DNA of 64,000 nt from Callorhinchus milii (GCF_018977255.1 NW_024704742.1:8868001-8932000), one strand, 5' to 3'. Numbered from the stretch's first letter, positions 1-49,265 are shown. Numbers and translations: made by a program. The notes: generated by a model not told the origin, from the sequence alone.

Positions 1-350
1 ATTACAGCTTCAAGCTGCTTTTTAAACTAAATCAGATTTCTAGGATCCAGGTAACTTCCAAATTCAATTGGGGTATAACTGAAATGCTTTGATGGTGTAT
101 TATGTCAACTCTGACTTGTCACTGTAGATTTTTTTACACTAACTGACCAGCACTCAAAGACCTGTCAGACTGGTGCTGTGTTAAATACAAGTCTCCCCAA
201 TTCCTTGGTAGGTGTCTACCAGTCAGAATATCTTCAGTAAATACACACTCGCCGACAAAAGAAAATCTTGCTGAATGGGTGAAATCAGTTATCGAACTTA
301 ATCACTTATCTATCCCAAAAAGTAGCGTAAACTAGGAATCTACTACATAC

Positions 351-605
351 CATTTCACACAGAGTCTTCTCCATTGCATCTCTCTGCGATTGAACACTTT
401 CCAGTTTGTGCTGCAGTTCATCTTTCTCCAGCACCACAGATGATTTTGCATTCTCCAGTTGCTGGACTTGATGGTTGAATTCCTGATCCAGTATTTGTGC
501 CTTGGAAATGTTATTGATCAGCTCACGCCTTAGTTGTTCAACCTCGATCAGTAAGTGGTCACGTTGAGATACTACCTGCTGAAGTTCATTTTTGCACCCG
601 AGTGT
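351..605 (-). CDS. CENPE: CENPE repeat unit 5 exon C (255 nt, 85 aa)
   Basis: tctgatag|ACA CTC ... TGT GAA ATG|gtatgt; phase 0-0, open. Confidence 0.9.
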
Positions 606-3600
606 CTATCAGAAAAAACATAAGGTTTTGCATGAAAATAACAATAACGGCTCCACTTCCTTGAAACCCATATGAGGATTAAGTGGCGATTAATTCTAAA
701 TCCCATCCTCAGAAGTAATTGTTCAAATCATTTATATGGCACAAAACTCAGTTATGGAACCCGTCTTCTGGCTGTGAGTAAGTGAAAGAGCAGAAAAACA
801 CATCACTTACCTTTTGTTTCTCTTTGTTTATTGTGTGGTCCTTTTCTGACAGACTTTGCTTCAGTTCAATTTCATTTTTCTGATTTACTTTTAGCTCTTC
901 TTGTAGATTTCTCATCTCTGCCTGATTCTCCACAGCCTGCAAAAGTGAATATCAGTTGCCTCTTGCAACAAAAGTAAGGTCGTTTTAAGCCACATTTCTA
1001 TAACATCCCTCATGCAGGGTAGCGTCCTCGAAAGCTTGACTGTGACGGTGATTAACTCTGACCTGGGGGAAGGGACCTTAGACATGGTTGAAGAGGAAGG
1101 TCTTCAGGTGTGACCTGAAGACTGAGAAGGATGGGGAAAGGCAGAGGGATAGAAGGAGCATGTCCTAGAATCTCGGGGCACATGGCTGAAAGTGCAGCCA
1201 CCGATGGCTAGATAATTGACATCCTTTGAACTCATGCAGTCCAGGCTGACATACCAGCCAAGATCTGGGAAAGCGCTGCATTGGTGCCGTCATTTGGATG
1301 AGACATTAAATCGAGGTCTCCTCTGCCTGTTAAAGATAGTATAGCACTATTCAAAAAGAGAAAGGGAGTTTCTCCCAATGACTTTGCCAACAATCCTCCA
1401 GACAGAATTGGTCAATCATTTCATGGTTGTTTGTGGGACATTGCAGTGCTTGCTTCACCCACAAAATACCCCATCACTAAACACTGTCCAGTATTTCCTG
1501 TAAAGTGATTTGAGACGTGCTCCCAAGCCAAAAAATGCTAAATTAGCTGTAAGGATTATTTATTTATTTTACTTTTGTTCCGGGAAATTCAAGGTTATTG
1601 TGGGGAATTAAACCGCTTCAATTTACCATCTCAATACTCTCTTGGAGATCACACTTCATTTGTTCACTCTCAGTTTGAAGGCTTGCTCGTTCTTGCTGTA
1701 ACTGCTCCTTCTCGGTCCTCAGGGTGTTCATGTTCTGCTGAAGAGAATAAAGCTGCTCCTTGAGTTCCTTTACTTCAATCTCATTTCTTGCCTCAATCAC
1801 TGTACTCTGATCTGGATTTAAACACTGATTTTCCAGGACATGATTTCCACATCCATCTTGGTATCGTATCTCCTAAATAGTTGTACAGACATATGATAAA
1901 TCCTTTGATCACAAGATGGGTTTCAATGAAGATAGTTTGGCCCATTTAATCTCACCCTCCCAAAATACTTATGTTTCTGACTTCCCATTACAGCTTCAAG
2001 CTGCTTTTTAAACTAAATCAGATTTCTGGGATCCAGGTAACTTCCAAATTCAATTGGGGTATAACTGAAATGCTTTGATGGTGTATTATGTCAACTCTGA
2101 CTTGTCACTGTAGATTTTTTTTACACTAACTGACCAGCACTCAAAGACCTGTCAGACTGGTGCTGTGTTAAATACAAGTCTCCCCAATTCCTTGGTAGGT
2201 GTCTACCAGTCAGAATATCTTCAGTAAATACACACTCGCCGACAAAAGAAAATCTTGCTGAATGGGTGAAATCAGTTATCGAACTTAATCACTTATCTAT
2301 CCCAAAAAGTAGCGTAAACTAGGAATCTACTACATACCATTTCACACAGAGTCTTCTCCATTGCATCTCTCTGCGATTGAACACTTTCCAGTTTGTGCTG
2401 CAGTTCATCTTTCTCCAGCACCACAGATGATTTTGCATTCTCCAGTTGCTGGACTTGATGGTTGAATTCCTGATCCAGTATTTGTGCCTTGGAAATGTTA
2501 TTGATCAGCTCACGCCTTAGTTGTTCAACCTCGATCAGTAAGTGGTCACGTTGAGATACTACCTGCTGAAGTTCATTTTTGCACCCGAGTGTCTAACAGA
2601 AAAAACATAAGGTTTTGCATGAAAATAACAATAACGGCTCCACTTCCTTGAAACCCATATGAGGATTAAGTGGTGATTAATTCTAAATCCCATCCTCAGA
2701 AGTAATTGTTCAAATCATTTATATGGCACAAAACTCAGTTATGGAACCCGTCTTCTGGCTGTGAGTAAGTGAAAGAGCAGAAAAACACATCACTTACCTT
2801 TTGTTTCTCTTTGTTTATTGTGTGGTCCTTTTCTGACAGACTTTGCTTCAGTTCAATTTCATTTTTCTGATTTACTTTTAGCTCTTCTTGTAGATTTCTC
2901 ATCTCTGCCTGATTCTCCACAGCCTGCAAAAGTGAATATCAGTTGCCTCTTGCAACAAAAGTAAGGTCGTTTTAAGCCACATTTCTATAACATCCCTCAT
3001 GCAGGGTAGCGTCCTCGAAAGCTTGACTGTGACGGTGATTAACTCTGACCTGGGGGAAGGGACCTTAGACATGGTTGAAGAGGAAGGTCTTCAGGTGTGA
3101 CCTGAAGACTGAGAAGGATGGGGAAAGGCAGAGGGATAGAAGGAGCATGTCCTAGAATCTCGGGGTACATGGCTGAAAGTGCAGCCACCGATGGCTAGAT
3201 AATTGACATCCTTTGAACTCATGCAGTCCAGGCTGACATACCAGCCAAGATCTGGGAAAGCGCTGCATTGGTGCCGTCATTTGGATGAGACATTAAATCG
3301 AGGTCTCCTCTGCCTGTTAAAGATAGTATAGCACTATTCAAAAAGAGAAAGGGAGTTTCTCCCAATGACTTTGCCAACAATCCTCCAGACAGAATTGGTC
3401 AATCATTTCATGGTTGTTTGTGGGACATTGCAGTGCTTGCTTCACCCACAAAATACCCCATCACTAAACACTGTCCAGTATTTCCTGTAAAGTGATTTGA
3501 GACGTGCTCCCAAGCCAAAAAATGCTAAATTAGCTGTAAGGATTATTTATTTATTTTACTTTTGTTCCGGGAAATTCAAGGTTATTGTGGGGAATTAAAC

Positions 3601-6600
3601 CGCTTCAATTTACCATCTCAATACTCTCTTGGAGATCACACTTCATTTGTTCACTCTCAGTTTGAAGGCTTGCTCGTTCTTGCTGTAACTGCTCCTTCTC
3701 GGTCCTCAGGGTGTTCATGTTCTGCTGAAGAGAATAAAGCTGCTCCTTGAGTTCCTTTACTTCAATCTCATTTCTTGCCTCAATCACTGTACTCTGATCT
3801 GGATTTAAACACTCATTTTCCAGGACATGATTTCCACATCCATCTTGGTATCGTATCTCCTAAATAGTTGTACAGACATATGATAAATCCTTTGATCACA
3901 AGATGGGTTTCAATGAAGATAGTTTGGCCCATTTAATCTCACCCTCCCAAAATACTTATGTTTCTGACTTCCCATTACAGCTTCAAGCTGCTTTTTAAAC
4001 TAAATCAGATTTCTGGGATCCAGGTAACTTCCAAATTCAATTGGGGTATAACTGAAATGCTTTGATGGTGTATTATGTCAACTCTGACTTGTCACTGTAG
4101 ATTTTTTTTACACTAACTGACCAGCACTCAAAGACCTGTCAGACTGGTGCTGTGTTAAATACAAGTCTCCCCAATTCCTTGGTAGGTGTCTACCAGTCAG
4201 AATATCTTCAGTAAATACACACTCGCCGACAAAAGAAAATCTTGCTGAATGGGTGAAATCAGTTATCGAACTTAATCACTTATCTATCCCAAAAAGTAGC
4301 GTAAACTAGGAATCTACTACATACCATTTCACACAGAGTCTTCTCCATTGCATCTCTCTGCGATTGAACACTTTCCAGTTTGTGCTGCAGTTCATCTTTC
4401 TCCAGCACCACAGATGATTTTGCATTCTCCAGTTGCTGGACTTGATGGTTGAATTCCTGATCCAGTATTTGTGCCTTGGAAATGTTATTGATCAGCTCAC
4501 GCCTTAGTTGTTCAACCTCGATCAGTAAGTGGTCACGTTGAGATACTACCTGCTGAAGTTCATTTTTGCACCCGAGTGTCTAACAGAAAAAACATAAGGT
4601 TTTGCATGAAAATAACAATATTTGATTGACGGGAGGATGTGCAGGAATAACTGTAGATAAAAGATCATGTTCAACAGGACCACGGCTCCACTTCCTTGAA
4701 ACCCATATGAGGATTAAGTGGTGATTAATTCTAAATCCCATCCTCAGAAGTAATTGTTCAAATCATTTATATGGCACAAAACTCAGTTATGGAACCCGTC
4801 TTCTGGCTGTGAGTAAGTGAAAGAGCAGAAAAACACATCACTTACCTTTTGTTTCTCTTTGTTTATTGTGTGGTCCTTTTCTGACAGACTTTGCTTCAGT
4901 TCAATTTCATTTTTCTGATTTACTTTTAGCTCTTCTTGTAGATTTCTCATCTCTGCCTGATTCTCCACAGCCTGCAAAAGTGAATATCAGTTGCCTCTTG
5001 CAACAAAAGTAAGGTCGTTTTAAGCCACATTTCTATAACATCCCTCATGCAGGGTAGCGTCCTCGAAAGCTTGACTGTGACGGTGATTAACTCTGACCTG
5101 GGGGAAGGGACCTTAGACATGGTTGAAGAGGAAGGTCTTCAGGTGTGACCTGAAGACTGAGAAGGATGGGGAAAGGCAGAGGGATAGAAGGAGCATGTCC
5201 TAGAATCTCGGGGTACATGGCTGAAAGTGCAGCCACCGATGGCTAGATAATTGACATCCTTTGAACTCATGCAGTCCAGGCTGACATACCAGCCAAGATC
5301 TGGGAAAGCGCTGCATTGTAAGAGGTGCCGTCATTTGGATGAGACATTAAATCGAGGTCTCCTCTGCCTGTTAAAGATAGTATTGCACTATTCAAAAAGA
5401 GAAAGGGAGTTTCTCTCAATGACTTTGCCAACAATCCTCAAGACAGAATTGGTCAATCATTTCATGGTTGTTTGTGGGACATTGCAGTGCTTGCTTCACC
5501 CACAAAATACCCCATCACTAAACACTGTCCAGTATTTCCTGTAAAGTGATTTGAGACGTGCTCCCAAGCCAAAAAATGCTAAATCAGCTGTAAGGATTAT
5601 TTATTTATCTAACTTTTGTTCCAGGAAATTCAAGGTTATTGTGGGGAATTAAACCCTTCAATTTACCATCTCAATACTCTCTTGGAGATCACACTTCATT
5701 TGTTCACTCTCAGTTTGAAGGTTTGCTCGTTCTTGCTGTAACTGCTCCTTCTCGGTCCTCAGGTTGTTCATGTTTTGCTGAAGAGAATAAAGCTGCTCCT
5801 TGAGTTCCTTTACTTCAATCTCATTTCTTGCCTCAATCACTGTACTCTGATCTGCATTTAAACACTCATTTTCCAGGACACGATTTCCACATCCATCTTG
5901 GTATCGTATCTCCTAAATAGTTGTAGATATATGATAAATCCTTTGATCACAAGATGGGTTTGAATGAAGACATATTGGCCCATTTGATCTCATCCTCTCA
6001 AAATACACACATTTCTGTCTTCCCATTACAGCTTCAAGCTGCTTTTTAAACTAAATCAGATTTCTAGGATCTAGGTAACTTCCCAATTCAATCGGGTTAT
6101 AACTGAAAAGCTTGGAATGTGTATTATGTCAACTCTGACTTTCACTGTAAATATTTTGACACAAATGGAGCAGAACTCAAAGACCTGTTAGAGTGTGTTA
6201 AATACAAGTCTCCCCAATTTCTTGGCAGGTGTCTACCAGTCAGAATATCTTCAGTAAATACACACATGCTGACAAAAGAAAATCTTGCTGAATGGATGAA
6301 ATCAGTTATTGAAATTAATCACTTATCTTTCCCAAAAAGTAGCCAAAACTAGGAATCTACTACATACCAGTTCAACCTTTTCACACAGAGTCTTCTCCAT
6401 TGCATCTCTCTGTGATTGAACACTTTCCAGTTTGTGCAGCAGTTCATCTTTCTCCAGCATCACAGATGATTTTGCATTCTCCAGTTGCTGGGCTTGATGG
6501 TTGAATTCCTGATCCAGTATTTGTGCCTTGGAAACGTTAGTTATAAGCTCACGCCTTTGTTGCTCAACCTCGATCAGTAAGTGGTCACGTTGAGATACTA

Positions 6601-9600
6601 CCTGCTGAAGTTCATTTTTGCACTCCAGTGTCTATCAGAAAAAACATAAGGTTTTACATGAAAATAACAATATTTGATTGACGGGAGGGTGTGCAGGAAT
6701 AACTGTAGATAAAAGATCATGTTCAACAGGACCACATGGGCTCCAGCTGCTTGAAACTCATATGAGGATTAAGTTGAGATTAATTCTAAATCCCATCCTC
6801 AGAGAACAAATTGTTGAAAGTATTTACTTGGCGCAAAACTCTCTCAGGTGTGGAATCCATCTTCTGGCTGTTTCGAGCTGTGAATAAGTGAGAGCAGAAA
6901 AACACATCACTTACCTTTTGTTTCTCTTCGTTTATTGTGTGGCCTTTTTCCGACAGACATTGTTTCAGTTCAATTTCATTTTTCTGCTTTACAATTAGTT
7001 CTTCTTGTAGATTTCTCATCTCTGCCTGATTCTCCACAGCCTGCAAAAGAATGAATGTTGCAACAAAAGTAAGGTAGAGTTTTAAGCCACAACAACATTT
7101 ACATAACATCCCTCATGCAGTATCCTAGAAAGCTCGACTGTGACGGGGATTGACGCTGAACTGGGGACACGGTTGAAGAGGAAGGTCTTCAGGTGTGACC
7201 TGAAGACTGAGAAGGATGAGGAAAGGCAGAGGGATAGAGGGAGCATGTTCTACAATCAAGGGCGTAGTGGCTGAAAGTGCAGCCACCGATGGCTAAATAA
7301 TTGACATCCTTTGAACTCATGCAGTCCAGGCTGACATACCAGCCAAGATCTGGGAAAGCGCTGCATTGTAAGAGGTGCCGTCATTTGGATGAGACATTAA
7401 ATCCAGGTCTCCTCTGCCTGTTAAAGATAGTATAGCACTATTCAAAAAGAGAAAGGGAGTTTCTCCCAATGACTTTGCCAACAATCCTCCAGACAGAATT
7501 GGTCAATCATTTCATGGTTGTTTGTGGGACATTGCAGTGCTTGCTTCACCCACAAAATACCCCGTCACTAAACACTGTCCAGTATTTCCTGTAAAGTGCT
7601 TTGAGACGTGCTCCCAAGCCAAAAAATGCTAAATCAGCTGTAAGGATTATTTATTTATTTTACTTTTGTTCCGGGAAATTCAAGGTTATTGTGGGGAATT
7701 AAACCCTTCAATTTACCATCTCAATACTCTCTTGGAGATCACACTTCATTTGTTCACTCTCAGTTTGAAGGCTTGCTCGTTCTTGCTGTAACTGCTCCTT
7801 CTCGGTCCTCAGAGTGTTCATGTTTTGCTGAAGAGAATAAAGCTGCTCCTTGAGTTCCTTTACTTCAATCTCATTTCTTGCCTCAATCACTGTACTCTGA
7901 TCTGGATTTAAACACTCATTTTCCAGGATACGATTTCCACATCCGTCTTGGTAACATATCTCCTAAATAGTTGTACAGACATATGATAAATCCTTTGATC
8001 ACAAGATGGGTTTGATTGAAGACATATTGGCCCATTTGATCTCATCTTCTCAAAATACTTACGTTTCTGTCTTCCCATTACAGCTTCAAGCTACTTTTTA
8101 AACTCAATCAGATTTCTAGGATCTAGGTAACTTCCCAATTCAATCAGGTTATAACTGAAAAGCTTGGAATGTGTATTATGTTAACTTCGACTTTCACTGT
8201 AAATATTTTGACACAAATGGAGCAGAACTCAAAGACCTGTCAGAGTGTGTTAAATACAAGTCTCCTCAATTCCTTGGTAGGTATCTTACCAGTCAGAATA
8301 TCTTCAGTAAATACACACATGCTGACAAAAGAAAATCTTGCTGAATGGATGAAATCAGTTGTTGAAATTAATCACTTATCTTTACCAAAAAGTAGCCAAA
8401 ACTAGGAATCTACTACATACCATTTCAACCTTTTCACACAGAGTCTTCTCCATTGCATCTCTCTGTGATTGAACACTTTCCATTTTTTTGAGCTGCAGTT
8501 CATCTTTCTCCAGCACCACAGATGATTTTGCATTCTCCAGTTGCTGGGCTTGATGGTTGAATTCCTGATCCAGTATTTGTGCCTTGGAAACGTTAGTTAT
8601 AAGCTCACGCCTTTGTTGCTCAACCTCGATCAGTAAGTGGTCACGTTGAGATACTACCTGCTGAAGTTCATTTTTGCACTCCAGTGTCTATCAGAAAAAA
8701 CATAAGGTTTTACATGAAAATAACAATATTTGATTGACGGGAGGGTGTGCAGGAATAACTGTAGATAAAAGATCATGTTCAACAGGACCACATGGGCTCC
8801 AGCTGCTTGAAACTCGTATGAGGATTAAGTGGTGATTAATTCTAAATCCCATCCTCAGAGAACAAATTGTTCAAAGTATTTACTTGGCGCAAAACTCTTT
8901 CTGGCTGTTTTGGGCTGTGAATAAGTGAGAGCAGAAAAACACATCACTTACCTTTTGTTTCTCTTTGTTTATTGTGTGGTCCTTTTCCGACAGACATTGT
9001 TTCAATTCAATTTCATTTTTCTGCTTTTCATTTAGTTCTTCTTGTAGATTTCTCATCTCTGCCTGATTCTCCACAGCCTGCAAAAGAATGAATATGAGCT
9101 GCCTGTTGCAACAAAAGTAAGGTAGAGTTTTAAGCCACAACAACATTTACATAACATCCCTCATGCAGTATCCTAGAAAGCTCGACTGTGACGGGGATTG
9201 ACGCTGAACTGGGGACACGGTTGAAGAGGAAGGTCTTCAGGTGTGACCTGAAGACTGAGAAGGATGAGGAAAGGCAGAGGGATAGAGGGAGCATGTTCTA
9301 CAATCAAGGGCGTAGTGGCTGAAAGTGCAGCCACCGATGGCTAAATAATTGACATCCTTTGAACTCATGCAGTCCAGGCTGACATACCAGCCAAGATCTG
9401 GGAAAGCGCTGCATTGTAAGAGGTGCCGTCATTTGGATGAGACATTAAATCCAGGTCTCCTCTGCCTGTTAAAGATAGTATAGCACTATTCAAAAAGAGA
9501 AAGGGAGTTTCTCCCAATGACTTTGCCAACAATCCTCCAGACAGAATTGGTCAATCATTTCATGGTTGTTTGTGGGACATTGCAGTGCTTGCTTCACCCA

Positions 9601-12600
9601 CAAAATACCCCGTCACTAAACACTGTCCAGTATTTCCTGTAAAGTGCTTTGAGACGTGCTCCCAAGCCAAAAAATGCTAAATCAGCTGTAAGGATTATTT
9701 ATTTATTTTACTTTTGTTCCGGGAAATTCAAGGTTATTGTGGGGAATTAAACCCTTCAATTTACCATCTCAATACTCTCTTGGAGATCACACTTCATTTG
9801 TTCACTCTCAGTTTGAAGGCTTGCTCGTTCTTGCTGTAACTGCTCCTTCTCGGTCCTCAGAGTGTTCATGTTTTGCTGAAGGGAATAAAGCTGCTCCTTG
9901 AGTTCCTTTACTTCAATCTCATTTCTTGCCTCAATCACTGTACTCTGATCTGGATTTAAACACTCATTTTCCAGGATACGATTTCCACATCCATCTTGGT
10001 ATCGTTTCTCCTAAATAGTTGTACAGACATATGATAAATCCTTTGATCACAAGATGGGTTTGAATGCCTTTAACTTTGGGATGGAATTACAGGGAGCGAA
10101 GCCCAATTTTTAACAATCTATGTTTTTGTATCCCTTGATTCTTCCACTCCACTGAGAATATTATCATTTACAGTTTAATCCCATTTTCTATTGTACTTCT
10201 CCAGAATGTTCTACTTCACATTCATCCTCCTGACTTGAAAGACTCTAAACCAAATATAAGGATTATTATGATGATGCAAACTGAATTCCACATTCCATAA
10301 AACTCTCCTAACCGCTCGCATTTATTGTCATGTTAACAGCAGTTGTGCTCAATTCAACCCATGCTCAGAGGGAAAAGATTAGACATCTTGCTCGACATCG
10401 AGCCCAAAGGGTAACACAAGAAGAAATGCCAAAGTATAATTTGAACCAACCTGCTTATCATTTCTGAGTTCATCCTTCTCAGAGGACAGACCTGTGAGGT
10501 CACGTTCCATTTGATCTGTTTCTTGGACAACCGTTGAGAGCTGCAGTTGCAGTTGTTTGCACTGGTTGTTCAGTCCATTTAGTTCATGTTTTGATTCTTT
10601 TAGTCTGGATTGTGCAGCCATTAGTTCTTCATAAAGCTGACCTTTTGCTATCGTCAACTCTTCATATTTATTTTTGTATTCCTCTCTCTCAGCTAATAAT
10701 TTATCTTTCTCTTCAGTCAAAATGCACAGTTCAGTAGCAGATTCGGCCATCTAAACATGCAAAGGAGGGAAGAACTCAGTGATCTAGTCCAGGTATGGAA
10801 AAAAGCACATGCCTACATTTTAGGAGACATAACTTGTCAACAAGTTCTGCCTTGATCAAAATTTCCACGCACTGAGTAGTCAATTCTTGTGTCAGGCTAT
10901 CTAACTGGTTCAAAAAAGTGCCCTAATACCTAATAATCTTTCTATGTACAAGTTATTTATACAGTACAACTCGCACAAGTCGTATCAGTTGGGACCCCAA
11001 CATTCAATAACATTTACGAAAAGTATGAGTGACAAGACAATTTGCACAAGTCGGATTTTATACTACGAACACATAACAGTAAACAAGTCCCTCGTTTTCC
11101 GCACTCATTTCAACTGAGTATATTGTACTGTAGTGTGCAGGTGGTACATCATCATTGCAGCTGATAAGTGTACATGTGGTGACAGATTAAGATGTTTCCC
11201 ACGCTCGTTTCAAACGGAATACTGCGCATGTTTACTTCGGCTGGTAGGTTGGCATGGTTGACAAGTCAAGACACTGCACACATACTTCAATCAGTCAGTA
11301 TATATGGTAGCGGTGTTACGAGGTTTGCAAAGAGTTTAAGATGTATTTTGGATCATTACAATTTAGCCATTTATCCGATTTATAAAATGACCTAATGCAA
11401 AGAAACCTAACCATTTTTTGGTAGGAAACTGATTGGTGCACATAACACTTAGGTGATTATACGATTTATAATGAGAAGACTTATGCAATTTTTACTGTAC
11501 TTATCCATTTTAGAAATATAATGCTTTACAGAATTTTTTGGTAGGTAAAATTACTGTTTTTTCGTAGTATCGCCCCTAAAATATTTATCTAACAATTCAA
11601 AATTTAATAAGAAAATGACAAAAACTTAAAGTTTATGCAAATTGGCAGTACTGTGTTGGCAATACTGAGCAGTGATTCTCAACCTTTTTCTGATCAAGGA
11701 CCCAACTGTAAACCTCTCTTTAGTGCAAAAATTATCTGGTTTACTAAATATTTCTTATAATAATAATCCTAGCATTTGATATAGCACTTTTCACATCTTC
11801 TAGACATCTCAAAGCGCTTCACAGAATATACTGTAAAGTGAATTGACTGTACATTTTGTGAGCGAAATGCAGCAACCAATTGCACACAGCAGTGTCCCAC
11901 AAACAGTCATGGATTGAAAATGACCAATTTATTATTTTTTTTATTTTTTTTGGAGGGATTATTATCAGGCGTGTGGAGTAAGGAAATTTGCCCAAGGTTT
12001 CACCCTGCCTGGAATTGAACCCAGATGTCTCGCTTGCAAGGTGAGTGCTCTATCCACTGAGCTACAGGACCACACCAAACCAATCAGAGTTCCCCTCATG
12101 CCACCTACACATTGAATTCCCATGACTGTAATGGATAGTGCACTCTCTCCTTAGTGATGCATCCTGCTTACCTAATTCAACAAAAACAACAACTTGCATT
12201 TATATAGTGCCCTTCACACTGGACGGCATCTCAGAGCGCTCAGATCTGGAGAATATTAAGAGCAGGCTTGCAAGATCTAAGATTCGGAGGGTCCCCAGAG
12301 TGTTTGCTATTGTACTGCTGGAGTTTCACCAGCCAAAGCTGCATGGTTTTATGCAACTGCATTCAACCATTGTAAACTCTGTATGAAAAGCTTCCTACTG
12401 CTTGTCCAGCCAGCACTCCTCTACTTGTTAGGGTTTCGGCTTGTAGAGTTGATAGGAGTTGAGTGGGAAGAATCCCTGCCCCCATCATCCCCACCTCCCC
12501 AAGTGATGATGAGTCAGGCTGGCTGATCTGTCATGAGCATTGCCCTGGACTAGTGCGGATCCGCACTAACAAGACCACCAAAAAGGGTTGACTCATTTCC

Positions 12601-15600
12601 GAAGTAATGTTGCCAAGCATATCACCTTGGAACCAGTTCAGCTCCAAGAGATTCCGCTAGCCTTTCCTCCCGCCAGGAGTATAATCACTGGTTGTTGATC
12701 TAACATCCGCCATGTACAAATTTGAGTTAGGTGGATGATGGGTATCAGGAACCACCGCAAGCTTCCTAGTGAGCAGCACATCTCAGCATGAAATACGTGA
12801 GAGCAGACAGGTGAGGATGCAGGCGTTGGAAGTATTGAATTATCTGGACCTTACGGATGGTGGAAATAACGAGACTGGCAAGGATTGCGTTAGGAAAATC
12901 TAGGCAAGAGGTAACAAGGCATGAATGAGATTTTAGCAGCATTTTGTGAGAGATGGGGACAGATGGCAAAGATGAAGAAAAGCAGCTTTGATAAGGACCA
13001 AGGTTATACGCTTTCATGTCGGGAGGAGGGTTTTGAGATGCACATTGAAGGAGCCAAAGGAGGGAGCAAGGCGAAGGGAATGTGGAATGGAGTTCCATAG
13101 GATGGGGGCAGAAAGGCTGAAGGCCCGATCACTGATGGTGTTTTACAAGGTAAGTGGACAGAACAACAGGACCAGGAATCAAGACTAGAAATGGAAAAGT
13201 AGATTTGGGTTTTGACTGTGGATAACGTCTACAGAAAGGGCATGTTGATAAGGAAAAGTAGGGTCCCCGAGGATAGAGCTGTGAAGTACTCTACAACTGA
13301 TGATGTGAGGGTGGGAGGAGCGAACATTAAAAGAGACAAAGCAATGGCTTTCAGGGGGCAGGGGAAGGGGAGGAAAGTGTGTTAAACATGGGAAAAACAC
13401 AGCTGTTAAGCAGATGGTGGCATTAAATTTGCTGTTGATGAAGACCAAAGGGAGAGGTTGAAGGCCGAGAAAGCGTTTGTGAGGGAGTGGGGACGGGGAG
13501 AGATGTTCCAGGGGCAGAATGAGAAAGTGGAGATTAAATGTAAGGTATACTGACTATGTACTTGTAAGCAAATGCGGCAGCCAATTTGTGCACAGCGGTG
13601 TCCAACAAACAGCCATGGCATGAATCAGCAATTTCACCTGAAGATTCATTGGCCAGGATACTGGAAAGAATTCCCTACTCTTGGTGAATAGTGCCATGGA
13701 ATCTTTAATGTCCACCTGAACAGACACATGGGACCTCAGTTTAACATCTCATTCGACGGATAGTCAATGGCACCACTCAAAAAGAGAAGGAAATTACTCC
13801 TGACTAACAATCCCACAAATATAATAGGTCATTCACTTCATGGCTGTTTGTGGGACATCGCTGTGCACAAATTGGCTACAGTTTTTGCCCACACAAATGC
13901 ACTCACTCCATTGTATAGTACTGTATACCCTATGAAGCACTTTTGGGAGGCCTCCTAACATGAAAGGTGCTACAACAAATACAAGGACTAAGCACTCTGA
14001 GACACTACTTATATTGAAGGGCACAGTACCAACACAAGCTGTTATTAATTAAATGTATTTGAAAAAGTTTACCTGTCAGATTAATATTTTCACACCGTAT
14101 GAATGAAACTGTGAAAAGAAGTCCTAGAAATTCGATAAAACTGAATCCATGCAAATTGTGACAGTACATCTTCCTAAAATTCAAATAAACACCTCCTGCA
14201 TTTCCTTTATTCACCTCTTTTGTTACTTTTTCAAAGTTCAATCAATTTAAGTTGACACGTTCTTCCCATTACAAATTCATGCTGGACATCCCTCATCAAT
14301 TACATTTTTTCTAAATGTTTCATAACAACATCAGTCATTATGACTTGAAGTAGCTTCCCTACAATTGATGTAACAATCACCAGCTCTTCCCTTTCTTAAA
14401 CAATGGAGTGACATTTGCCTCCTTCCAGCATTCTTGGAAACCACTGGGGTTTCCAAGAGGGTGACAAATGACACAGATGATAGACTCTAACATAATACAG
14501 TAAGTGTTTCATTTAGTTGTCGCTATTCCAGTCTCATTTGAAAACTGAATTAGACATTCAAAGAAATCAAAGAATCATACAATTACTGAAGTTGCAAGCC
14601 CTAATGCTAATTTAGTAGATAAACCCATTTACATGTAAAACATACACCACAATCACTGCTGAAGTAATCAATTTTCTGCACAATGGGTATTTACAGTTCC
14701 TTACCGGTGTTGTCAATTTTTCCACTTCATCAGGCAATGACTTGCACTCACATAAGCGGTTCACCTCTTGCTGCAGGCAAGTCTTTTCTTCTGATGTTTT
14801 AGCCAATTGTTGCTGAAGCTCAGAAATCGTCTTTTCTAGTTGAACACAGTCCAACAAGTCTAATATTGTTTTTTTAAAAAAAAATACATTAGAAGACTGA
14901 TGAACTTCTTCAATCACACAACAGCAATTAATTTAAAAACATTAATAAGAAGTAATGGATGCAAAAATACAGTACAGCAGTACAATGGGTCACTGTGACT
15001 CATTTAATTCTCAACATCCAAAATAATTCATTCTATACCTTCATTCTGATGACATTTACTGAACACAGATTATCTATTTTACATATACTAATGGAATGAA
15101 TCGACAGTCCTTCAATTCGCTGAAAGGAAACAAAATCAGTGGCATTTCTGCAATTTTTTTGGAGGAGGAAGTGACCTAACTTAGTCATGTTTGTTGTTCA
15201 AAACAATAATAGATGGTATATAAAAATCTACATTTAACAATGGAAATTCGATGAGACCTGGTGGCAGGAGGAGGCAGAGGGTCCAGGCATAACACTAATT
15301 TTTTTTACGAATTAAAATTGGAAAACTGTATGCCTAGCTATAATCAAATCGCCTCTATAGCAAATACTTTTGTGACTGGGATAAATTGCAGTGACATACT
15401 TTTGGGAACTTTTCCATCCATAAGAGTTGTTAGCTTGGTATTTTCAATAAAAACGTGCTGCAACTCTTTCTGCATATCAGTTTGCATTTGATTGTAGCGT
15501 GTTCGCTCAGCATCCAGCTGGTTCCGATACAATTGTGTGTCCTTCTCCATCTGCTGATAGTTCATTCTCATTTCATTCTTCAGATCAAATGTTAGAGGGG

Positions 15601-18600
15601 AAAGAAAAAAAAATTACTTTAGAACACGAGATTTCATTTTGAATGAAATTATTTTTGATTTGTGTACTTTGCTACATTGATAAGAAATACAGTCAAAGCT
15701 GTCTTCAGCAACGTATCAGGGGACTGGGCCAAAGTGTCCTTAATGTAAATAAGGTGGCCTCTGAATAAGGGTGCTTTGATGTGTGAACCTGGGTGTCCAG
15801 GGGGGTTGTTAACAAGGGGTTGCTGAATAGAGGCGTTTGATTGAATCTCACAATAGCCTATCAGAAACATTAAAGTTCCCGGTGTCACTCTTGATCTGAA
15901 GCACAGAAACTTTGAAACCATATCCATACAAATTGACACCGAGTCTAATGTGGATATCAAGTCATCAAGCAAAATACAATAGGGCTACATTGCCAACCAA
16001 AAAACACAGTACCACATTGTGCCAGCCCAATTTAATTTTTAATTAATTAATTTTCTACCTTTCTCAGTTTGTCTCTCTGGCTATAGTTTGCTCTGTATTT
16101 GTAGGTGAATGTGGCAGCCTATTTGCATACAGTAATGTTCCACAAACAGCCATGAAGTAAATTACTAATGTTATTTGGAAGATTGTTGGCCATCAGGAGA
16201 AACTTTCTTCTCTTTTTGAGTCATGACATGGGATCTTTAACATCCACCTAAAGAGGCAGATGGGACCCTGGTTTAACATCTCATTCCCAAAGGATGGCAT
16301 GTCCAACAGTACAATGTACAGTACAATGCAGTCCCTGTAATGCATTGGAGTGTTGGGTTGATCTAGACTACGTGAGCTCAATTCTATGTGCTTGAACCTA
16401 CAACTTTCTAACTCAGTTGTAAGTGCTACCAACTGAGCCAGGTTGATACTTTATAAAGTTAAGCAGCAAATGAAGCACTGAGGCAACATTTCTAATCGCT
16501 CAAAAAAAGGTCATTCACAAGGACGGTACTTCTGAAGAACTTAAAGAAATGAATTTACCACTTTTGGCATGGAGCGATTTTAGCAAATTAATCTGTATGT
16601 ATAGAATGCTGAAATGAGAATGGAGGTAGTAGCTACAAACAAGGTGCATTTATATAGCACCCTTCACCTTCGGACACCAAGCAAGGAAGAGCGGGAAGGA
16701 GAGAGGGGGATGGCCGTAGGCACGTTCATAGTGGTAGGATTTGAGGCAAGGTGGAGTGGTAGGGTGGGTGAGCTCCAGAGATGAGTGGCGTAGAACTGAA
16801 GGCTCAACCACCGATGGCGGCATGGAGAGGGAGTGGGACACAGCAGACCCCTGAGCTGAGGGAGCGAGCAGAGAAGTCGGGGAGGAGAATTCAGAGGTAA
16901 GATGCCAGCGAGTGAATGGATTTGTAGGTGAGACCTTGACATTGATCAACATCAACAAATAATTCAATTTTTGTATTACCATTTCTTCCTTCATCTGTGC
17001 ATTTTCACTTCTTAGAAAGGCAGAGTGCTTATTTCCATCACATATTAAGATTTCAGCATCATTCAGTGATTGTTGTAACTGCACAATCTGCTTCTTCAAA
17101 TCCTCACCGTCACTCTGAGGAATACAAATCAAGATATTGGAATTTACACAACTATGAAATGACGGTCTATTTCCTCATTCCACAGAATGATTATACCCCA
17201 AATTCAAGGTCCATCTCAAGACCTACTTCTTTGACTGCACTTTCGGTTAGCTTTCCCTTCCTCACCCCCTTTGGCTCCACCCCAGTTTGGGTGCCAAGCC
17301 AATATTGTTAAGTGATTTGTGATATCCTCCTGATTTGAAATGCACTAAACAAGTGTAAATTTGTATTGTAAATTGTGATTTATTTTATTTATAGCTTAGA
17401 GACATTGTCTGTAGATTGTTTTAATTTTGTTAAAAACAAAGGTCAAAATTGTCAAAATTCAGTGTGAAAAATGTTGAAAGAGTTTATGGGCCTTTACACT
17501 TGTTCAGTTGCGCAAGATATTCTGAGGTGCATAACGATAAACGTTCCATTTGATATAGTGCTTTTCATGTCTTCGAGATGATGTCTCAAAGCGCTTCACA
17601 GAATATATTGTAAAGTGAATTGACTATATTTGTGAGCGAAACGTGGCAGTCAATTGTGCACAGCAGTGAGCCACAAACGGTCGTGGATTGAGTGACCAAA
17701 TTGTTATTTTATTTATTTCCTTGAGGGATTACTGTCAGACGTGTGGAATAAGGAAACTTGCCCAAAGTTTGACCCTGTTGGGAATCGAACACAGGTCTCT
17801 TGCTTGCGAGGCGAAAGCTCTAACCACTGAGCTACAGGACTCCTCAAGCATACATTTCAGATAGATCCATTCATGAAGTGGGAAATGGAGCAGGCAATCA
17901 TACCCTAGTCATACAAGGAGTCAATCTGACAGGGAAACTTCTGGGCTCAACAAAGCACAAACACCCCCCAAGCAACCACACTAGGTTTACACAGGTTTGT
18001 TCACATGTGGAAGACCATTAAATGCCAGAACCGACATTATACTGCCATTCTTAAGAGTATTAAAACCAGACAGAGCTTCATTTACCAACATCCACATGGA
18101 AATTCCTGAGTTTGGAATAGAATTTGCATTCTCGGCCCAGAGGGTGCAAATTCCATTCCAAACTTACTTAACCTAGGAGTGAGTATTAGGCACATGTTGG
18201 CAAGAGTCCAGGCTTAGGGTCCCCAGATTGTGCCTGTGTCACCACCCATTTCTCACCCATGTCAATCTCATCTCAATCTTAGGTGGAGTTTAGCTACCTA
18301 AAAATATAGCTTGCCATTGAAAGCACTGTCTGGCAAGCTATATCCCCTCTCCCCTCCATTTGTCCTTCTACCCAGGGTTTGTCTGTATGTCACCTGAAGG
18401 CCAGTTCATCTTATCTTCCCACCCTCAATAGGATAGTCACTAATTAGTAATTCGACCTCCAACATGAACAGGTTTGAGCCCTCACAAGACAGATGCCAGG
18501 TACCAGGAGCTTCCTCGCAAGCAGCACAGCTCAACATGAAATACATGAAAACATTGCCAGCATCTTCCAACCCAGAGTTCAGATATTCATGCCCACCCAC

Positions 18601-21600
18601 ATTAGTCCTGAGCAGTAACCCGAACTATTAAAAATGAACAGAAAATTATACGGGGTCTTTGGAGGTTTTACTGTATTACATACATTCAGGCGTACAGGAG
18701 AGGAGCTTGTAACTACAAAAATAATGCACATTTCGATTTGAAAAAAACGATGTTTAAAAATTGCATGCATGTATATGGTCTAAGAACATATTCATGTCAG
18801 AAGGGAAAGTAAAATTTATAACTAAGAGATAGTGGAAAGGTAAAAATGTGTGCCCGTGCACCAGAAGACTGTACCACAAAGCATACCAAATTCAATGTTA
18901 CAGAAATACCCATATACAAACATTACCCAAAATGTGACAACCAGAAAATAATTTTATACTGATGAAAATGGTGTAATCATCTTTTTTTTAATGCAGATGT
19001 TCAGTGAAACCAGAGTATAATTGTATACTTACATATATTATAACTATATAATTGTATAACCAAAAGCCGTTGGAAGCTTCAGCTTCCGCTACAGTAAAGC
19101 AATTTAAAAATCTGGCTTTGAAAACCAAGGCAGTGAACTTTGAAGGTGGTTGTAACTTGAGATGCTAGAGGCGAGAGAACCTGGTTCGATTTACAGGCAG
19201 CTTCCTTACTCCACACACACCTACCTGTTTACCTAGCAGTAAGTAGGAACCCAGTTGTGTCACTTTTCCAGGGGTACTAATCACTTCAAAATAAATAATA
19301 ATATGGTCACTCAATGCACGGCTGTTTGTGGGAGACTGCTGTGTGTAGTTGACTGCCGCGATTTGCCCACAAAATAGTTACTACACTTTACAGTATGTTC
19401 TGTGAAGCGTATTGAGACATCTCGAAGACGTGACAAGTCGCTATATCAAATGCAAGTATTATTATCCCTTGAGTTAATTTACACTTAGGTATGTTCGAGG
19501 TTTTTTGATAAATCATTAGTTGAGTTTGTTTTTTCCTTTCTTTCAAAAATATGGCGCTGCCATATACCACACAGATAGTAAGTCAAATTGTTCCTTACTA
19601 CTTATGCAAATGTGGGTGAAGGCGTTCCAATTAGTGACTTGCCCCAGAAGGTTGCCCATCTTGACTGGCAGCGTTAAAGGAAGGCATCTGCCTTGGCTTG
19701 TTTTGATGTGCAGTGGCTCGGTACAGTAAATGATAGCATCGGCATATTTGGCAGGAAGCAAGGAGTTCAAATCACCATCTGCCTTCTGATTAACCCGAGA
19801 CTTAGTTTGCAGGATCAGCAAAGACGAAGTTTCTTCTCGAGGTAAAGCTGACATCTGCAAATTCAGAATTTTGATCTATCGGGAGATGCATGCTTGATCT
19901 ATCAGGAGTACACTCAAATTCACCCATAGCTCAATACATACCACGCAGATAGTAAGTCAAATTGTTCCTTACTCCTTAAAGAAAATTCTCAAAGTTCAGT
20001 TTGCAAGGTTTTGTGGAGCAGCAGCTGTTGGATGCCCTTGCTGTATTCTGCCACCTCCAATAGGATATAGTAATTCCAATTCCATCTCCAGCTGGTATCA
20101 ATGTGTCCAACAATTCCTTTACTACATTCCCAAAAGGACAACTTTCTTCCTAAGAGATCCCTTCCAAATCCAGCTCTAGTTCAGGTACATCTTTGAAGCT
20201 CTTCGAGACACTACTCCACGTGAAGTGCGCTATATAAATTCAAGTTGTTATGGTTGAAGACAACCCAAATCATCCAAACTGTTAGCCTGGCTGTGTATGG
20301 CTTAAGCACCAGTGCCGTTGGGCTCTTCCACCCCACTACTGTTAACATGGCTATCTGGAAAGTGACATGCAAGGAACCAGGGTAATGATGCACCTAGAAG
20401 TCAAACTGATCCCATCACGAAAGGGGCAAATCCCTTTCCAAATCCAGCTTCAGATCATTATCTCTTGAAGACAACCCAAATCACTCACACCCCATTCCAC
20501 CATTCATCAGCTTGGAACACACTCATTAAGTCTGAAAATCTATAGTCATCTAAAAACTGGCTCAAACTATGAAAATAGTAAAATTCCACTGTGATAATTT
20601 CTTTCATCAAAAACAGACTTTTGTACATGTTTTCAAATGGCCTGCACACTATTACTCTTAATATTCCACCTATTGCACTATTATGGGCCCAAAATTATTT
20701 TAATATACCTTGAGTGACTTACAATGTAATGCAATCTACTGTATTTTGCAAATATTTTAAACTTACCTGTGCTGTGCAGGTATAAAGTTTCAGGTTTCTT
20801 GCTGCCGCTTCTTTCAGCTGTTGAATTTGGTTTTGAAGGTCTAAAATCTGTTGATCTTGTTGTATTTTTTTCGCTTGGCTGATTATTTCAGTCTATTATT
20901 AACAAATAAAATATCTTCAAACTTCATTTTAGGCTAGCAGGAGTTACAACAATTACAAGTAAATCAAATGCATTGTGTAAACAGAACTTGAAATCAGGGC
21001 CTGTACTTCTAAACTGAATCAATATGTAACCTTGCTCGTGACCAATCGCAGAAACATTGAATTATATACACAGATTTCTGAACAATACAGAACCCACACA
21101 GGTCTGAACACGGTAAGGATATGAAGATTGCAATGCTTCAGAATGCACCGTTCGTGTTAATTAACATAAAGGATAAGTTAGGAAACACTGTAAACAAACA
21201 GGCCAACTTGGTACCGTTTCTTAAAACAATGAAGAGCTGAATCATGGTGCCAAGGGGCCTCAGCAATGGTTTAGTGACAATTTAAAACTATTTAATGCTA
21301 AAAAAAAAATCAACATTTTGACGGCACAAAAAGGAAACTGAATTAAATTGGGTTTTCTTACTCAGTGAAATTCTGCCTCGAGAATAGAGACATTAAAGAG
21401 AGGCCTCAGAGAATTATCAAGATATTGCAAAGGAGTCACTGAACGCAAGCTAATTAAGGAACAATATTAATGTTCATAAATATTCTTTGTTGTATGAAAC
21501 AACCTTTACCTCGCAATTCGAAATAAAAATTCAGTTTTGAAATCAAATTAAAGCAAGGGGGGGGGGGATGGAAGAAAATAAAACTCCCTGGACTTGTCCT

Positions 21601-24600
21601 CACGGTCACATTCCTCCCCAGCTTCACACCACCCTTTATAATCTCGTGCAGCCTTACCATTCCCAGCTGCATCCCTCACGCAGCTAACTTCATATCCCAT
21701 GCCCTTCCATCAGTGGGTACAATTGCATTACCATCAGTGGATGAGCATTCATTGTGCCTCTGTTCTGGACCTCCATTCCAGAGTGCCTCAGCCTCTCCCC
21801 CTTCTGCCCTACCTTTCAAACCAAATTAAGACCTTTCAAATTCTATCTTTAAAGGCATCTTTAAAGGTAATTATCTTTCCAAAAAATAATTATTTAATTA
21901 CTCAATCCACTGTTTGTGAGACACTGCTGTGCCCCACCATCAGTAGGCGCAATTGGCTGCCGCGTCTTGCCTACAAAACATACACTCCATTCACTTTCCA
22001 ATATATTCCGTGAAACGCTTTGAGACGTCTCAACAACATAATAAGGTACTATATTGAGTGCATGGATTATTATTATTATTCCTTTCCAATCATGCTTTCT
22101 GTCAACTTCCTCAACCCCCGCTCAGGCATGCAGTCAGCTCTGGGTTTGGTCTTGTGTGAAAACCGTATGTCAAATTAAATTTGAAGAAACTTCAAGAACT
22201 CTTATAATAAATGCCAGCATCCTGATTGCCTTATTGATCGTTTTTTGGATTCTGAATCAGAATTCAAATTAACCTGAACCAGGTTCTCTGGCCACAATCT
22301 TTCAATCCTCCTTGGATATGGGAGTGATGCCAGAGGACTGGAGGGTTGCAAATGTTACACCGCTGTTCAAAACAGACGAGGGATAAACCTGGTAACTACA
22401 GGTCAGTTAGCCTAACGTCAGTTAGGTTCTAGAGACCATAATCAGGGACAACATTACTCATGGGCAATCGCTTGTAGATGTTTGTAAAATAAGGTATTAA
22501 TGAATATGGAGAAACGTAAGGAAATGGGTTAAAAACATCTGCTATGATCACCTAAAGGTAGAATAGGCTGGATAAACTGAAGGCCTCTCACTGCTTATTA
22601 GGATTCATAGCTATGGGATTTTTTAATAACTGCAAAAAACTTCTTTTTTTTTTGAAGTTCTTAATCTTACAACAACAACAACAACTTGCACTTATAGAGC
22701 AGCCTTCACATAGGGTAGCATCCCAGGGCACTTACAATAGGCTACGTATATTTTCAACTTTAGCTATTGATACTTGCAAAGTACCTCAGTGATGTTTTGA
22801 ATTTCTTTTTCCAAGTACTCAAATTCTTCAATCTCCTTCTTTCCTTTCATTAGATTTTTCAGTTCACTTATTTCTTGCTTTTGTTTCTCGATTTCCATTT
22901 TTAGTATTTTGGCATCATTCTGGAAAGTAGACATTTTCATTCATAACTTTTCTTTTTTAAAAATCACAAAAGTTGAAACACAGGATGTTTTACTCATGCT
23001 ATAATGATGGAGTTCTGCTTTAAATACCTTTTCAGAGTAAAGAAGCTCACAAAGCTGAACACTTTCAATCAACTGCTTCTGCAAATGGTTTGCATGATTC
23101 TGCAAAACAAAAATGAAAAAGGAAATTAATTTTCAATGGATTCATTTTCATATTTGAAAATTAGGATTCATAAAACTAAATTGATCCAATGGAGCAGGGA
23201 AATGCATCCTCAACAATGTGGGGCCACCACCAAAGACTATTAGAAACCAAGAAAACTGCCTAAATTTTACTTTGTGCAGATCCTTAAACTGAAGGAAACA
23301 TTAGACATTCATACCATATTGAAATCAAATTAATGTTCTACCTCAATTTATTGCAGACACTTAGGGCAAACTTGATAAGGTACTGACTTACATTAGAATG
23401 TTTAAGCTGCACACATCGGGGCAGGGAGTTTTGTCCGATTTTCCAGGCATCCGGTACCTGAAGTTCTTTTCTTTCCACTCTGCTGAGCGCCTCTTCCCTC
23501 CCATTTCCATTGGAAGGGAAGGGGAACAATTGCGGGGCTCCACTAGGTATCAATCCCCTCCACATTCATCGGATGCTGCTTGTGAAACTGCTGTCCATCA
23601 ATCACGATTCAACTCCTCCCATGTTTCTTCCCCATTGCTCCGCGCCTCACTGATTGACAGCCCAATTCCAGTCACGTATGAATGGCTGGAGTCCGCTGTC
23701 AATTAATCTTAGACTCCTCCCATCTCCATCCCGGAGCCACTCGTGGCCAAATGGAGCCGCTCGAGACAGTGCAACATTACCCAGATTAACAGGATTTTCG
23801 TTCAAATTTAACAGGCATATTTAAAATGGGTAAGAATACAAATGAATCGGGGCCGGACATGTCATCCGATTTACCCTACGTCCGGCTAAAGTGGATTCCA
23901 CTGTGTGTATGTATGTGTATATATATTATGTTGTGTATATATATATAAAATATATATGCACACTTCAGCACTTTAGCTGCAATGAATACAAATTGACAGA
24001 TTTAAGTAAACAGATTAAATGATAAAGAACCAACCTCGCTCTTCCTATTTTCTTCTCTTCTCTCTTTTATCACGTCTTCAAGATTTTGCTCCAGCTCAGT
24101 GTACATTTTTACTAGTTCCTCGTTTGAAGGTCCATTATTACTCTCACTGAAGAATAAATGATTGAATTTTGTTAGGTAAATCCACTACACATTTTGAGTA
24201 TTAGCATTACGAATAACAATCCTTACATTTGATACAGTGCCCCAACACTTTGCTGATTCACAGGACTCACTGAAAGTTGCAGTGACTGTGCACCACGCAG
24301 GCATCCGGCAGCCAATTGGCCACAATAATGTCTTACAACAACCATGAAGTCGCGACAAATTTTATCCGGAGGATTGGTGGTCGGGATACCACGAAGAGAA
24401 AAACTCCCTTCCTTTTCAAAGCACATTGACAGTGCTCGATGGGCACCTGAGCTGTGGGCGGGAGGTGAATGAGGACCACTCTTCTGCACCTCCCTACCTC
24501 TCTGACCGCCTCTCTCCTCAAAACAGTGCCCGTTGCCTTCGTTCCACTGGGTCTGGCCTCTTCCTCGTCCCCCCCGAGTCCTCCGCTCTATCCTCTGCGG

Positions 24601-48600: not shown

Positions 48601-48647
48601 TGAGCAGTTCATCCTCATTCCAATCATTAAACGTTAGTCAAACATTG

Positions 48648-49265
48648 GGAGGTCACACATGGGGGGTCACACATGGGGTCAATCATGGGGGGTCACACAT
48701 GGGGTCAATCATGGGGGGTCACACATGGGGTCAATCATGGGGGGTCACACATGGGGGGGTCAAATGTAGGGGTAGTCAAACATGGGGCGTCAAACATGGT
48801 GGTAGTCAAACATGGGATCAAACATGGGTGGGGGGGTGTCAAACATGGGTGGGGGGGTGTCAAACATGGGTGGGGGGGTGTCAAACATGGGGGGGGTGTC
48901 AAACATGGGGGGGGTGTCAAACATGGGGGGGTGTCAAACATGGGGGGGGGGTGTCAAACATGGGGGGTGTCAAACATGGGGGGGGTGTCAAACATGGGGG
49001 GGGTGTCAAACATGGGGGGTGTCAAACATGGGGGGGGTGTCAAACATGGGGGGTGTCAAACATGGGGGTGTCAAACATGGGGGGGGGGGTGTCAAACATG
49101 GGGGGGTGTCAAACATGGGGGGGGGGTGTCAAACATGGGGGTGTCAAACATGGGGGGGGGTGTCAAACATGGGGGGGGTGTCAAACATGGGGGTGTCAAA
49201 CATGGGGGGGGGTGTCAAACATGGGGGGGGGTGTCAAACATGGGATCAAACATGGGTGGGGGGTG
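48648..49265 (+). repeat. G-rich minisatellite (GnTCACACAT / GnTCAATCAT grading into GnTGTCAAACAT)
   Basis: Tandem units directly visible. Confidence 0.95.

Follow-up and report, generated by a model that had tools for sequence, protein, structure and literature searches.

The window, the whole 64,000-nucleotide stretch of DNA that we analysed, carries on its minus strand the single CENP-E (kinesin-7) gene of the elephant shark, Callorhinchus milii. The gene runs from motor and neck exons through single-copy stalk exons into a tandem array of repeated exons. The stalk exons were placed with P0007, a 2584-aa NCBI model from the same assembly that lies on a 139-Mb contig; two of the stalk blocks adjoin split codons, and exon ends are possibly off by 1-2 bases. 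The features are as follows.

32596..48446, minus strand: twelve motor and neck exons, 367 aa, ATG at 48446, all bounded by AG..GT
48373-48446, 47371-47456, 45878-45967, 44365-44483, 43836-43952 and 42907-42988, minus strand: motor/neck exons 1-6
41137-41204, 39383-39457, 37682-37733, 35493-35580, 35226-35355 and 32596-32715, minus strand: motor/neck exons 7-12
14705..29301, minus strand: ten single-copy stalk exons, from exact peptide mapping of P0007
29152-29301, 26941-27057, 25465-25629, 24035-24148 and 23028-23099, minus strand: stalk blocks 1-5, P0007 peptide matches
22785-22919, 20767-20892, 16980-17114, 15401-15577 and 14705-14857, minus strand: stalk blocks 6-10, P0007 peptide matches
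10451..10750, minus strand: last single-copy stalk exon before the array, 100 aa, from P0007 mapping and a contig of run X5 (see below)
1..10066, minus strand: tandem array of three-exon cassettes, five units, passing beyond the window start

The first-pass annotation had called this gene CENP-E, and its motor, its colinearity with a relative and the end of its tail all bear this out. An N-terminal kinesin motor is encoded in twelve intact exons. The Pfam family Kinesin (PF00225) matched minus-strand exons at 44107-44541 (E 5.6e-15) and 43749-43997 (E 6.5e-09), the best solved-structure matches of the P-loop exon were the CENP-E motor (1t5c and 6m4i), and exons carrying the SSRSH and LAGSE motifs are present in the motor region. 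Using tblastn, we found that Heterodontus CENP-E is colinear with the window from motor to stalk, from 47.4 kb down to 14.7 kb, which supports orthology with CENP-E. A search with the repeated exons returned only Callorhinchus milii "centromere-associated protein E-like" proteins. All 124 hits of a wider protein search were CENP-E by name or unnamed models, with the named hits spanning sharks, rays, fishes, amphibians, reptiles and mammals, and a second Callorhinchus CENP-E locus was not among the protein search hits. Beyond the window, P0007 and an older model, P0001, have a 678-aa tail that ends in CKTQ, as in human isoform P0038; this C-terminus is found in 52 of the 127 fetched proteins, and we take the CKTQ CAAX-type box of the CENP-E tail to be a farnesylation site.

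P0007 is without the motor. It starts at an ATG inside an intron near 29395 (~29.4 kb), and the twelve intact motor and neck exons lie upstream of this start on the same strand; the public annotation thus looks truncated at the 5' end of the gene. Adding the 367 aa of motor and neck to P0007 gives an estimate of ~2947 aa for the full protein. The surroundings of the first coding exon (ATG 48446) have features of their own: G-rich minisatellites with periods of 14-52 nt flank it at 47537-48033 and 48635-49263, and GC nearby reaches 0.55 with strong GC skew, probably marking a promoter or CpG-island region. Long minus-strand ORFs in CENP-E introns, at 27654-29064 and 33463-33960, look like pieces of LINE reverse transcriptase when their translations are read by eye.

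Repeat searching resolved positions 1-10066 of the minus strand into five head-to-tail units of 1987-2053 bp. The copies keep one register, their starts lying 1987 or 2048-2054 bp apart, and in a lag scan the array similarity stops near 10066. Numbered in gene order on the minus strand, the units are the following.

8019..10066, minus strand: U1 (2048 bp), with exons A at 9765-10010, B at 8952-9077 and C at 8421-8687 (267 nt)
5969..8018, minus strand: U2 (2050 bp), with exons A at 7717-7962, B at 6915-7040 and C at 6368-6631 (264 nt)
3916..5968, minus strand: U3 (2053 bp), with exons A at 5667-5912, B at 4846-4971 and C at 4325-4579 (255 nt)
1929..3915, minus strand: U4 (1987 bp), with exons A at 3614-3859, B at 2798-2923 and C at 2338-2592 (255 nt)
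1..1928, minus strand: U5, truncated at the window start, with exons A at 1627-1872, B at 811-936 and C at 351-605 (255 nt)

Every unit holds three phase-0 exons, A of 246 nt (82 aa), B of 126 nt (42 aa) and C of 255-267 nt (85-89 aa). An AG acceptor and a GT donor are present at 15 of 15 array exons, stop codons are absent, and both the exon lengths and the differences in exon length between units are multiples of three. In makeup the array resembles a coding macrosatellite or multi-exon VNTR, with head-to-tail units of at least 1 kb that carry whole exons in frame. The translations of U1-U5 add up to 1052 aa (213+212+209+209+209), and 917 aa stand ahead of the array, namely the 367 aa of motor and neck and 550 aa mapped letter for letter from P0007. 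P0007 matches all 15 array exons residue for residue at identical coordinates, with no split codons. These exons are thus already in the public model, with identical boundaries, and that model extends the whole array to six A-B-C cassettes and a seventh C (6 A, 6 B and 7 C), which together supply 1352 aa of the protein. TRF gave no match within 1-10066 because its longest period is 500, and no Pfam family matched the repeated exons above cut-off.

The units fall into two subfamilies, U1-U2 and U3-U5. In pairwise comparisons without gaps, U1 and U2 are 98.0% identical, members of U3-U5 are 99.0-99.7% identical, and identity between the subfamilies is 93.5-94.1%. U4 and U5 are the closest pair, at 99.74% (over 1928 aligned bases, 5 substitutions and a 1-base indel), and U3 and U4 are 99.3% identical, differing by 14 substitutions and 72 gap columns. 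Chance cannot account for five 2-kb copies at 94-99.7% identity, a likeness far beyond it. These results reproduce what the first-pass annotation had read from the array: at least five head-to-tail units of ~2 kb, exons of the stated lengths in phase 0 with open frames and intact splice sites, 1052 aa following 917 single-copy aa, "about six" differences between U4 and U5, and an array that leaves the window, beyond which P0007 has one more full unit and the extra exon C. They also support its proposal of a recent in-frame amplification of a three-exon cassette.

Between subfamilies, exons diverge by 4.2-4.8% versus 6.5-7.3% for introns, and 11-13.5 synonymous against 15-18.5 non-synonymous differences give a dN/dS of 0.28-0.35. 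The young subfamily has a dN/dS of ~1 among its own members, from only 1 synonymous and 4-5 non-synonymous changes, and because the changes are so few, selection on the newest copies is not demonstrable. The A-to-B intron (9078-9764 in U1, with its counterpart in U2-U5) holds fragments 68-86% similar to about a dozen other sites in the window. Such fragments are present in the A-to-B intron of every unit, and they are therefore interspersed-repeat insertions older than the cassette amplification.

An AF2 model of the U1+U2 stretch (a monomer run with no alignment; mean pLDDT 74.5, pTM 0.27) has long helices at residues 22-184 and 249-424, with pLDDT below 50 between them. This low-confidence, non-helical stretch of ~64 residues spans the C-to-A boundary and contains DGCGN and NPDQ motifs; a heptad signal is present along the repeats and falls at the C-to-A boundary, where the AF2 helix breaks. 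Each unit is predicted to form one helix of ~163-176 residues followed by a ~64-residue non-helical stretch, and the AF2 helices and heptad signal together describe a very long, discontinuous coiled-coil stalk. A coiled coil rises ~0.15 nm per residue. On this basis each unit would contribute a rod of roughly 24-26 nm, plus a hinge, which lowers the "up to ~30 nm" per unit of the first-pass annotation, since the helix covers only ~163-176 residues. The predicted pattern of rod and hinge fits the discontinuous human stalk, for which PMC8905165 gives more than 20 discontinuous coiled coils.

Hidden Markov models of the three elephant-shark modules (A, B and C), run on CENP-E proteins, revealed that the same part of the stalk is repeated in other cartilaginous fishes. 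In 6 of 6 elasmobranch-type CENP-E proteins, one A is followed by 7-12 tandem C modules of 87 aa, with A missed in Pristis. When Heterodontus CENP-E is written in rows of 87 aa, the homology of its repeats to exon C is plain. A single A-like and a single B-like stretch come before these repeats, and the conserved sequence after them is the one that also follows in the elephant shark. Because elasmobranch C-module repeats lie at the same site, this site was already repetitive in cartilaginous fishes. To judge from the module matches, it is repetitive in all cartilaginous fishes examined, and holocephalans and elasmobranchs amplified different blocks there. Two protein searches returned no second holocephalan CENP-E. 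At E 1e-3 the module models matched nothing in the CENP-E of sturgeon, alligator, human, Ascaphus or Xenopus.

Elasmobranch CENP-E totals 2591-2897 aa versus ~2947 aa in the elephant shark. Since the relatives are repetitive at the same site and reach similar totals, the array re-amplifies an ancient repetitive segment and confers no exceptional reach. The earlier proposal that the array alters the reach of the stalk is thus revised: reach is not merely added, and the total lies near those of the relatives.

Repetition of the stalk extends beyond cartilaginous fishes. A periodicity scan of one CENP-E model per species found 80-aa stretches at least 90% identical at a fixed lag in 38 of 69 species, which were hand-picked and hand-labelled from 120 listed proteins; the proteins scanned are predicted models, all of at least 2548 aa (the lower bound of the search), and the scan was of CENP-E only. 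The lags range from 42 to 409 aa (for example Narcine 202, Ascaphus 409, Ranitomeya 216 and 230, Cyclopterus 170 and Coregonus 173), and nearly all repeats are mid-protein. No mammal among the 69 species had such fixed-lag repeats. The fetched CENP-E models are 2548-4066 aa long, the lower figure again being the bound of the search, and those of amphibians reach 3.0-4.1 thousand aa. From these predicted proteins, such repetition appears to be common in CENP-E stalks and has apparently gone undescribed, the elephant-shark array being one instance of it. A broader hypothesis is possible but rather doubtful, namely that the stalk is a recurrently re-amplified spacer across vertebrates, in which each lineage has multiplied its own exon block independently, the copy number of an array is polymorphic within a species, and selection acts on total length and rod-hinge architecture and not on sequence. 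If this were true, natural alleles would differ in kinetochore-tether length by whole units.

The same variety could mean that a repeat prone to recombination has produced the array as a neutral side effect, with a stalk length that drifts freely under no length constraint and no function tied to copy number. The wide range of repeat periods among species, the spread of fetched protein lengths (whose minimum is set by the search) and the newest copies, which carry no detectable purifying selection, speak for such drift. We nevertheless consider it unlikely. The older subfamilies differ with a dN/dS of ~0.3, 15 of 15 exons are intact, and chondrichthyan totals stay within 2591-2947 aa despite differing repeat architectures. 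In addition, PMC4116301 reports that shortening of the human stalk impairs congression and attachment. We thus favor the reading in which the array mainly renews the stalk and may hold its length near the range of the relatives.

To follow the array into RNA, we compared the contigs of four runs with positions 8019-15700; X1 and X2 are DNA-like, X5 and X7 are RNA-like by guess, and all are short-read and so cannot give copy number. The exon A-to-B joint of U1, 9076/9764, occurs in one contig each of X5 and X7, which come from two studies. The intron, bounded by GT..AG on the minus strand (CT..AC on the plus), is excised exactly; the joint is absent from the contigs of the DNA-like runs X1 and X2. 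Exon-bounded contigs of X5 and X7 also match exon A of the U2 and U4/5 types and exon C of subfamily I, so that at least three exon-A variants are present in the RNA-like contigs. Repeated exons are thus found in what look to be mature mRNAs, and the A-to-B joint together with the exon-bounded contigs supports the presence of array exons in transcripts. Upstream, a 2824-nt X5 contig covers the exon at 10450-10750 exactly and extends 2495 letters further upstream, 44 nt more than the 2451 nt of coding sequence on that side. The length of this contig suggests that motor and stalk are in one mRNA.

The joint between units, from exon C to the next exon A, was not among the joints listed (15 of 2964), so that the evidence for tandem units within a single mRNA comes from the gene model and indirect signs. 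The array could accordingly be real in DNA while most transcripts skip exons or units, leaving a protein much shorter than the model. Besides the unlisted C-to-A joint, it speaks for such skipping that all exons are in phase 0, so that any whole-exon or whole-unit skip stays in frame, and that older RefSeq isoforms differ in the repeated exons that they hold. However, these isoform differences fit the gaps and collapse of the older assembly. Contig depths in X5 point weakly the same way: the A-to-B contig (235) and subfamily-I exon C (182) are deeper than upstream single-copy mRNA (38.7), the direction expected with several units per mRNA, although contig depth cannot rank the parts of a gene. 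Skipping on this scale is therefore quite improbable in our view, and we retain the reading that the units are transcribed and spliced in tandem.

Summed contig depth in X1 and X2 was considered as a measure of the array (bins of ~37-59 in the array versus ~10-15 in the flank) and rejected as evidence, since contig depth does not measure copy number. Much of the contig matching falls on interspersed repeats (9047-9817 and 11617-13929), which dominate it, and 11617-12387 has enormous summed contig depth in X1, X2, X5 and X7. The sole Rfam match over 8019-14000 is tRNA-like (RF00005, 42.3 bits) at 12000-12071 on the minus strand, outside the array; this match probably marks the head of a SINE of tRNA origin, present in very high numbers, that sits in the intron preceding the array. 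One X5 contig (record 17; 605 nt, depth 6.8) joins 8019-8359 straight to 10065-10268, that is, the 3' part of the C-to-A intron to the unique upstream flank, omitting exons A-C of U1. The two sides of this junction have no 12-mer in common, and the 8359/10065 junction is absent from the assembly and is not followed by the contigs of X1 and X2. Record 17 may be a second, structural allele at the 5' edge of the array or a chimeric contig.

An older assembly provides an independent view of the locus. Its models, P0001-P0006, carry only ~2-2.5 units, and their modules are identical to A1, B1, A6, B6, C6 and C7. Because these are edge modules, the edges of the array are confirmed by the independent assembly, with the middle apparently collapsed there. 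The lower unit count of these models and the junction in record 17 are only hints that copy number may be polymorphic, as the first-pass annotation had suggested. Older short- or medium-read assemblies usually err by collapsing near-identical 2-kb repeats, and long-read assemblies do not usually err by expansion. That only two or three units are true and U3-U5 were falsely duplicated in assembly is highly improbable: the small unit count of the older models, the 99.0-99.7% identity of U3-U5 and the short-read nature of the contigs, none of which was seen across the whole array, would suit it, but each unit has private differences, unit lengths differ (1987 versus 2053 bp), the substitutions and gaps given above separate U4 from U5 and U3 from U4, and RNA-like contigs carry at least three exon-A variants.

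We are therefore confident that a 2-kb block of three exons has truly been amplified in tandem and in frame inside the single Callorhinchus milii CENP-E gene, and that the array is transcribed. Unequal crossing-over with gene conversion likely multiplied this block of three phase-0 coiled-coil exons. Six cassettes and the extra exon C would encode 1352 of ~2947 residues, with every unit presumably included in every mRNA. Each unit is predicted to supply a helical rod of ~165-175 residues and a non-helical hinge at the C-to-A boundary, and the array would build a segmented, flexible tether from the motor to the kinetochore-binding tail. In this model, the array is the form taken in a holocephalan by a part of the stalk that consists of tandem repeats in all cartilaginous fishes examined.

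A stalk of which nearly half consists of near-identical cassettes argues that its length and rod-hinge layout are maintained, and the other route by which elasmobranchs reach a similar total length at the same site argues likewise. If copy number varies between individuals, the locus would offer a natural allelic series relating tether length to chromosome capture. It is also a trap for assembly and annotation, as the array was apparently collapsed in the older assembly and the current model is without motor exons. In the open literature, subscription journals and supplements aside, we found no published description of tandem exon arrays in CENP-E, and we found no literature that treats Callorhinchus together with CENPE.

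The closest known system is CENP-E of elasmobranchs (Heterodontus, Heptranchias, Pristiophorus, Narcine and Pristis), which is the same gene by its motor, colinearity, tail and CKTQ end, with the same stalk position tandemly repetitive and a homologous exon-C module. The two differ in what is repeated: elasmobranchs repeat the single 87-aa C module 7-12 times after one A, whereas the elephant shark repeats an A-B-C cassette of 209-213 aa six times and adds one C, in copies that are up to 99.7% identical, introns included. The array is a further example of intragenic multi-exon amplification, a kind known from the KIV-2 VNTR of LPA, where a kilobase-scale multi-exon cassette varies in copy number between people and sets protein size. 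Intragenic multi-exon tandem blocks also lengthen other modular proteins, as in the triplicate region of nebulin, the Olduvai triplets of NBPF and the long homologous repeats of CR1, all of which belong to protein classes other than that of CENP-E. The likeness to LPA KIV-2 lies in a head-to-tail, in-frame, multi-exon cassette that forms a large coding share, up to 70% of the LPA coding sequence according to the abstract of PMC11201333; the difference is that LPA repeats a folded domain and elephant-shark CENP-E a coiled-coil spacer. A long, flexible CENP-E stalk is needed for chromosome congression and stable attachment, as PMC4116301 reports. There, a 'Bonsai' CENP-E without 1475 of ~1700 stalk residues was impaired in both free-motor motility and chromosome congression. 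This 85% deletion was engineered into human or Xenopus CENP-E and is silent on steps of a single 210-aa unit. Among these systems, the elephant-shark array is notable mainly for sitting in a kinetochore motor whose stalk length, on the evidence of PMC4116301, matters.
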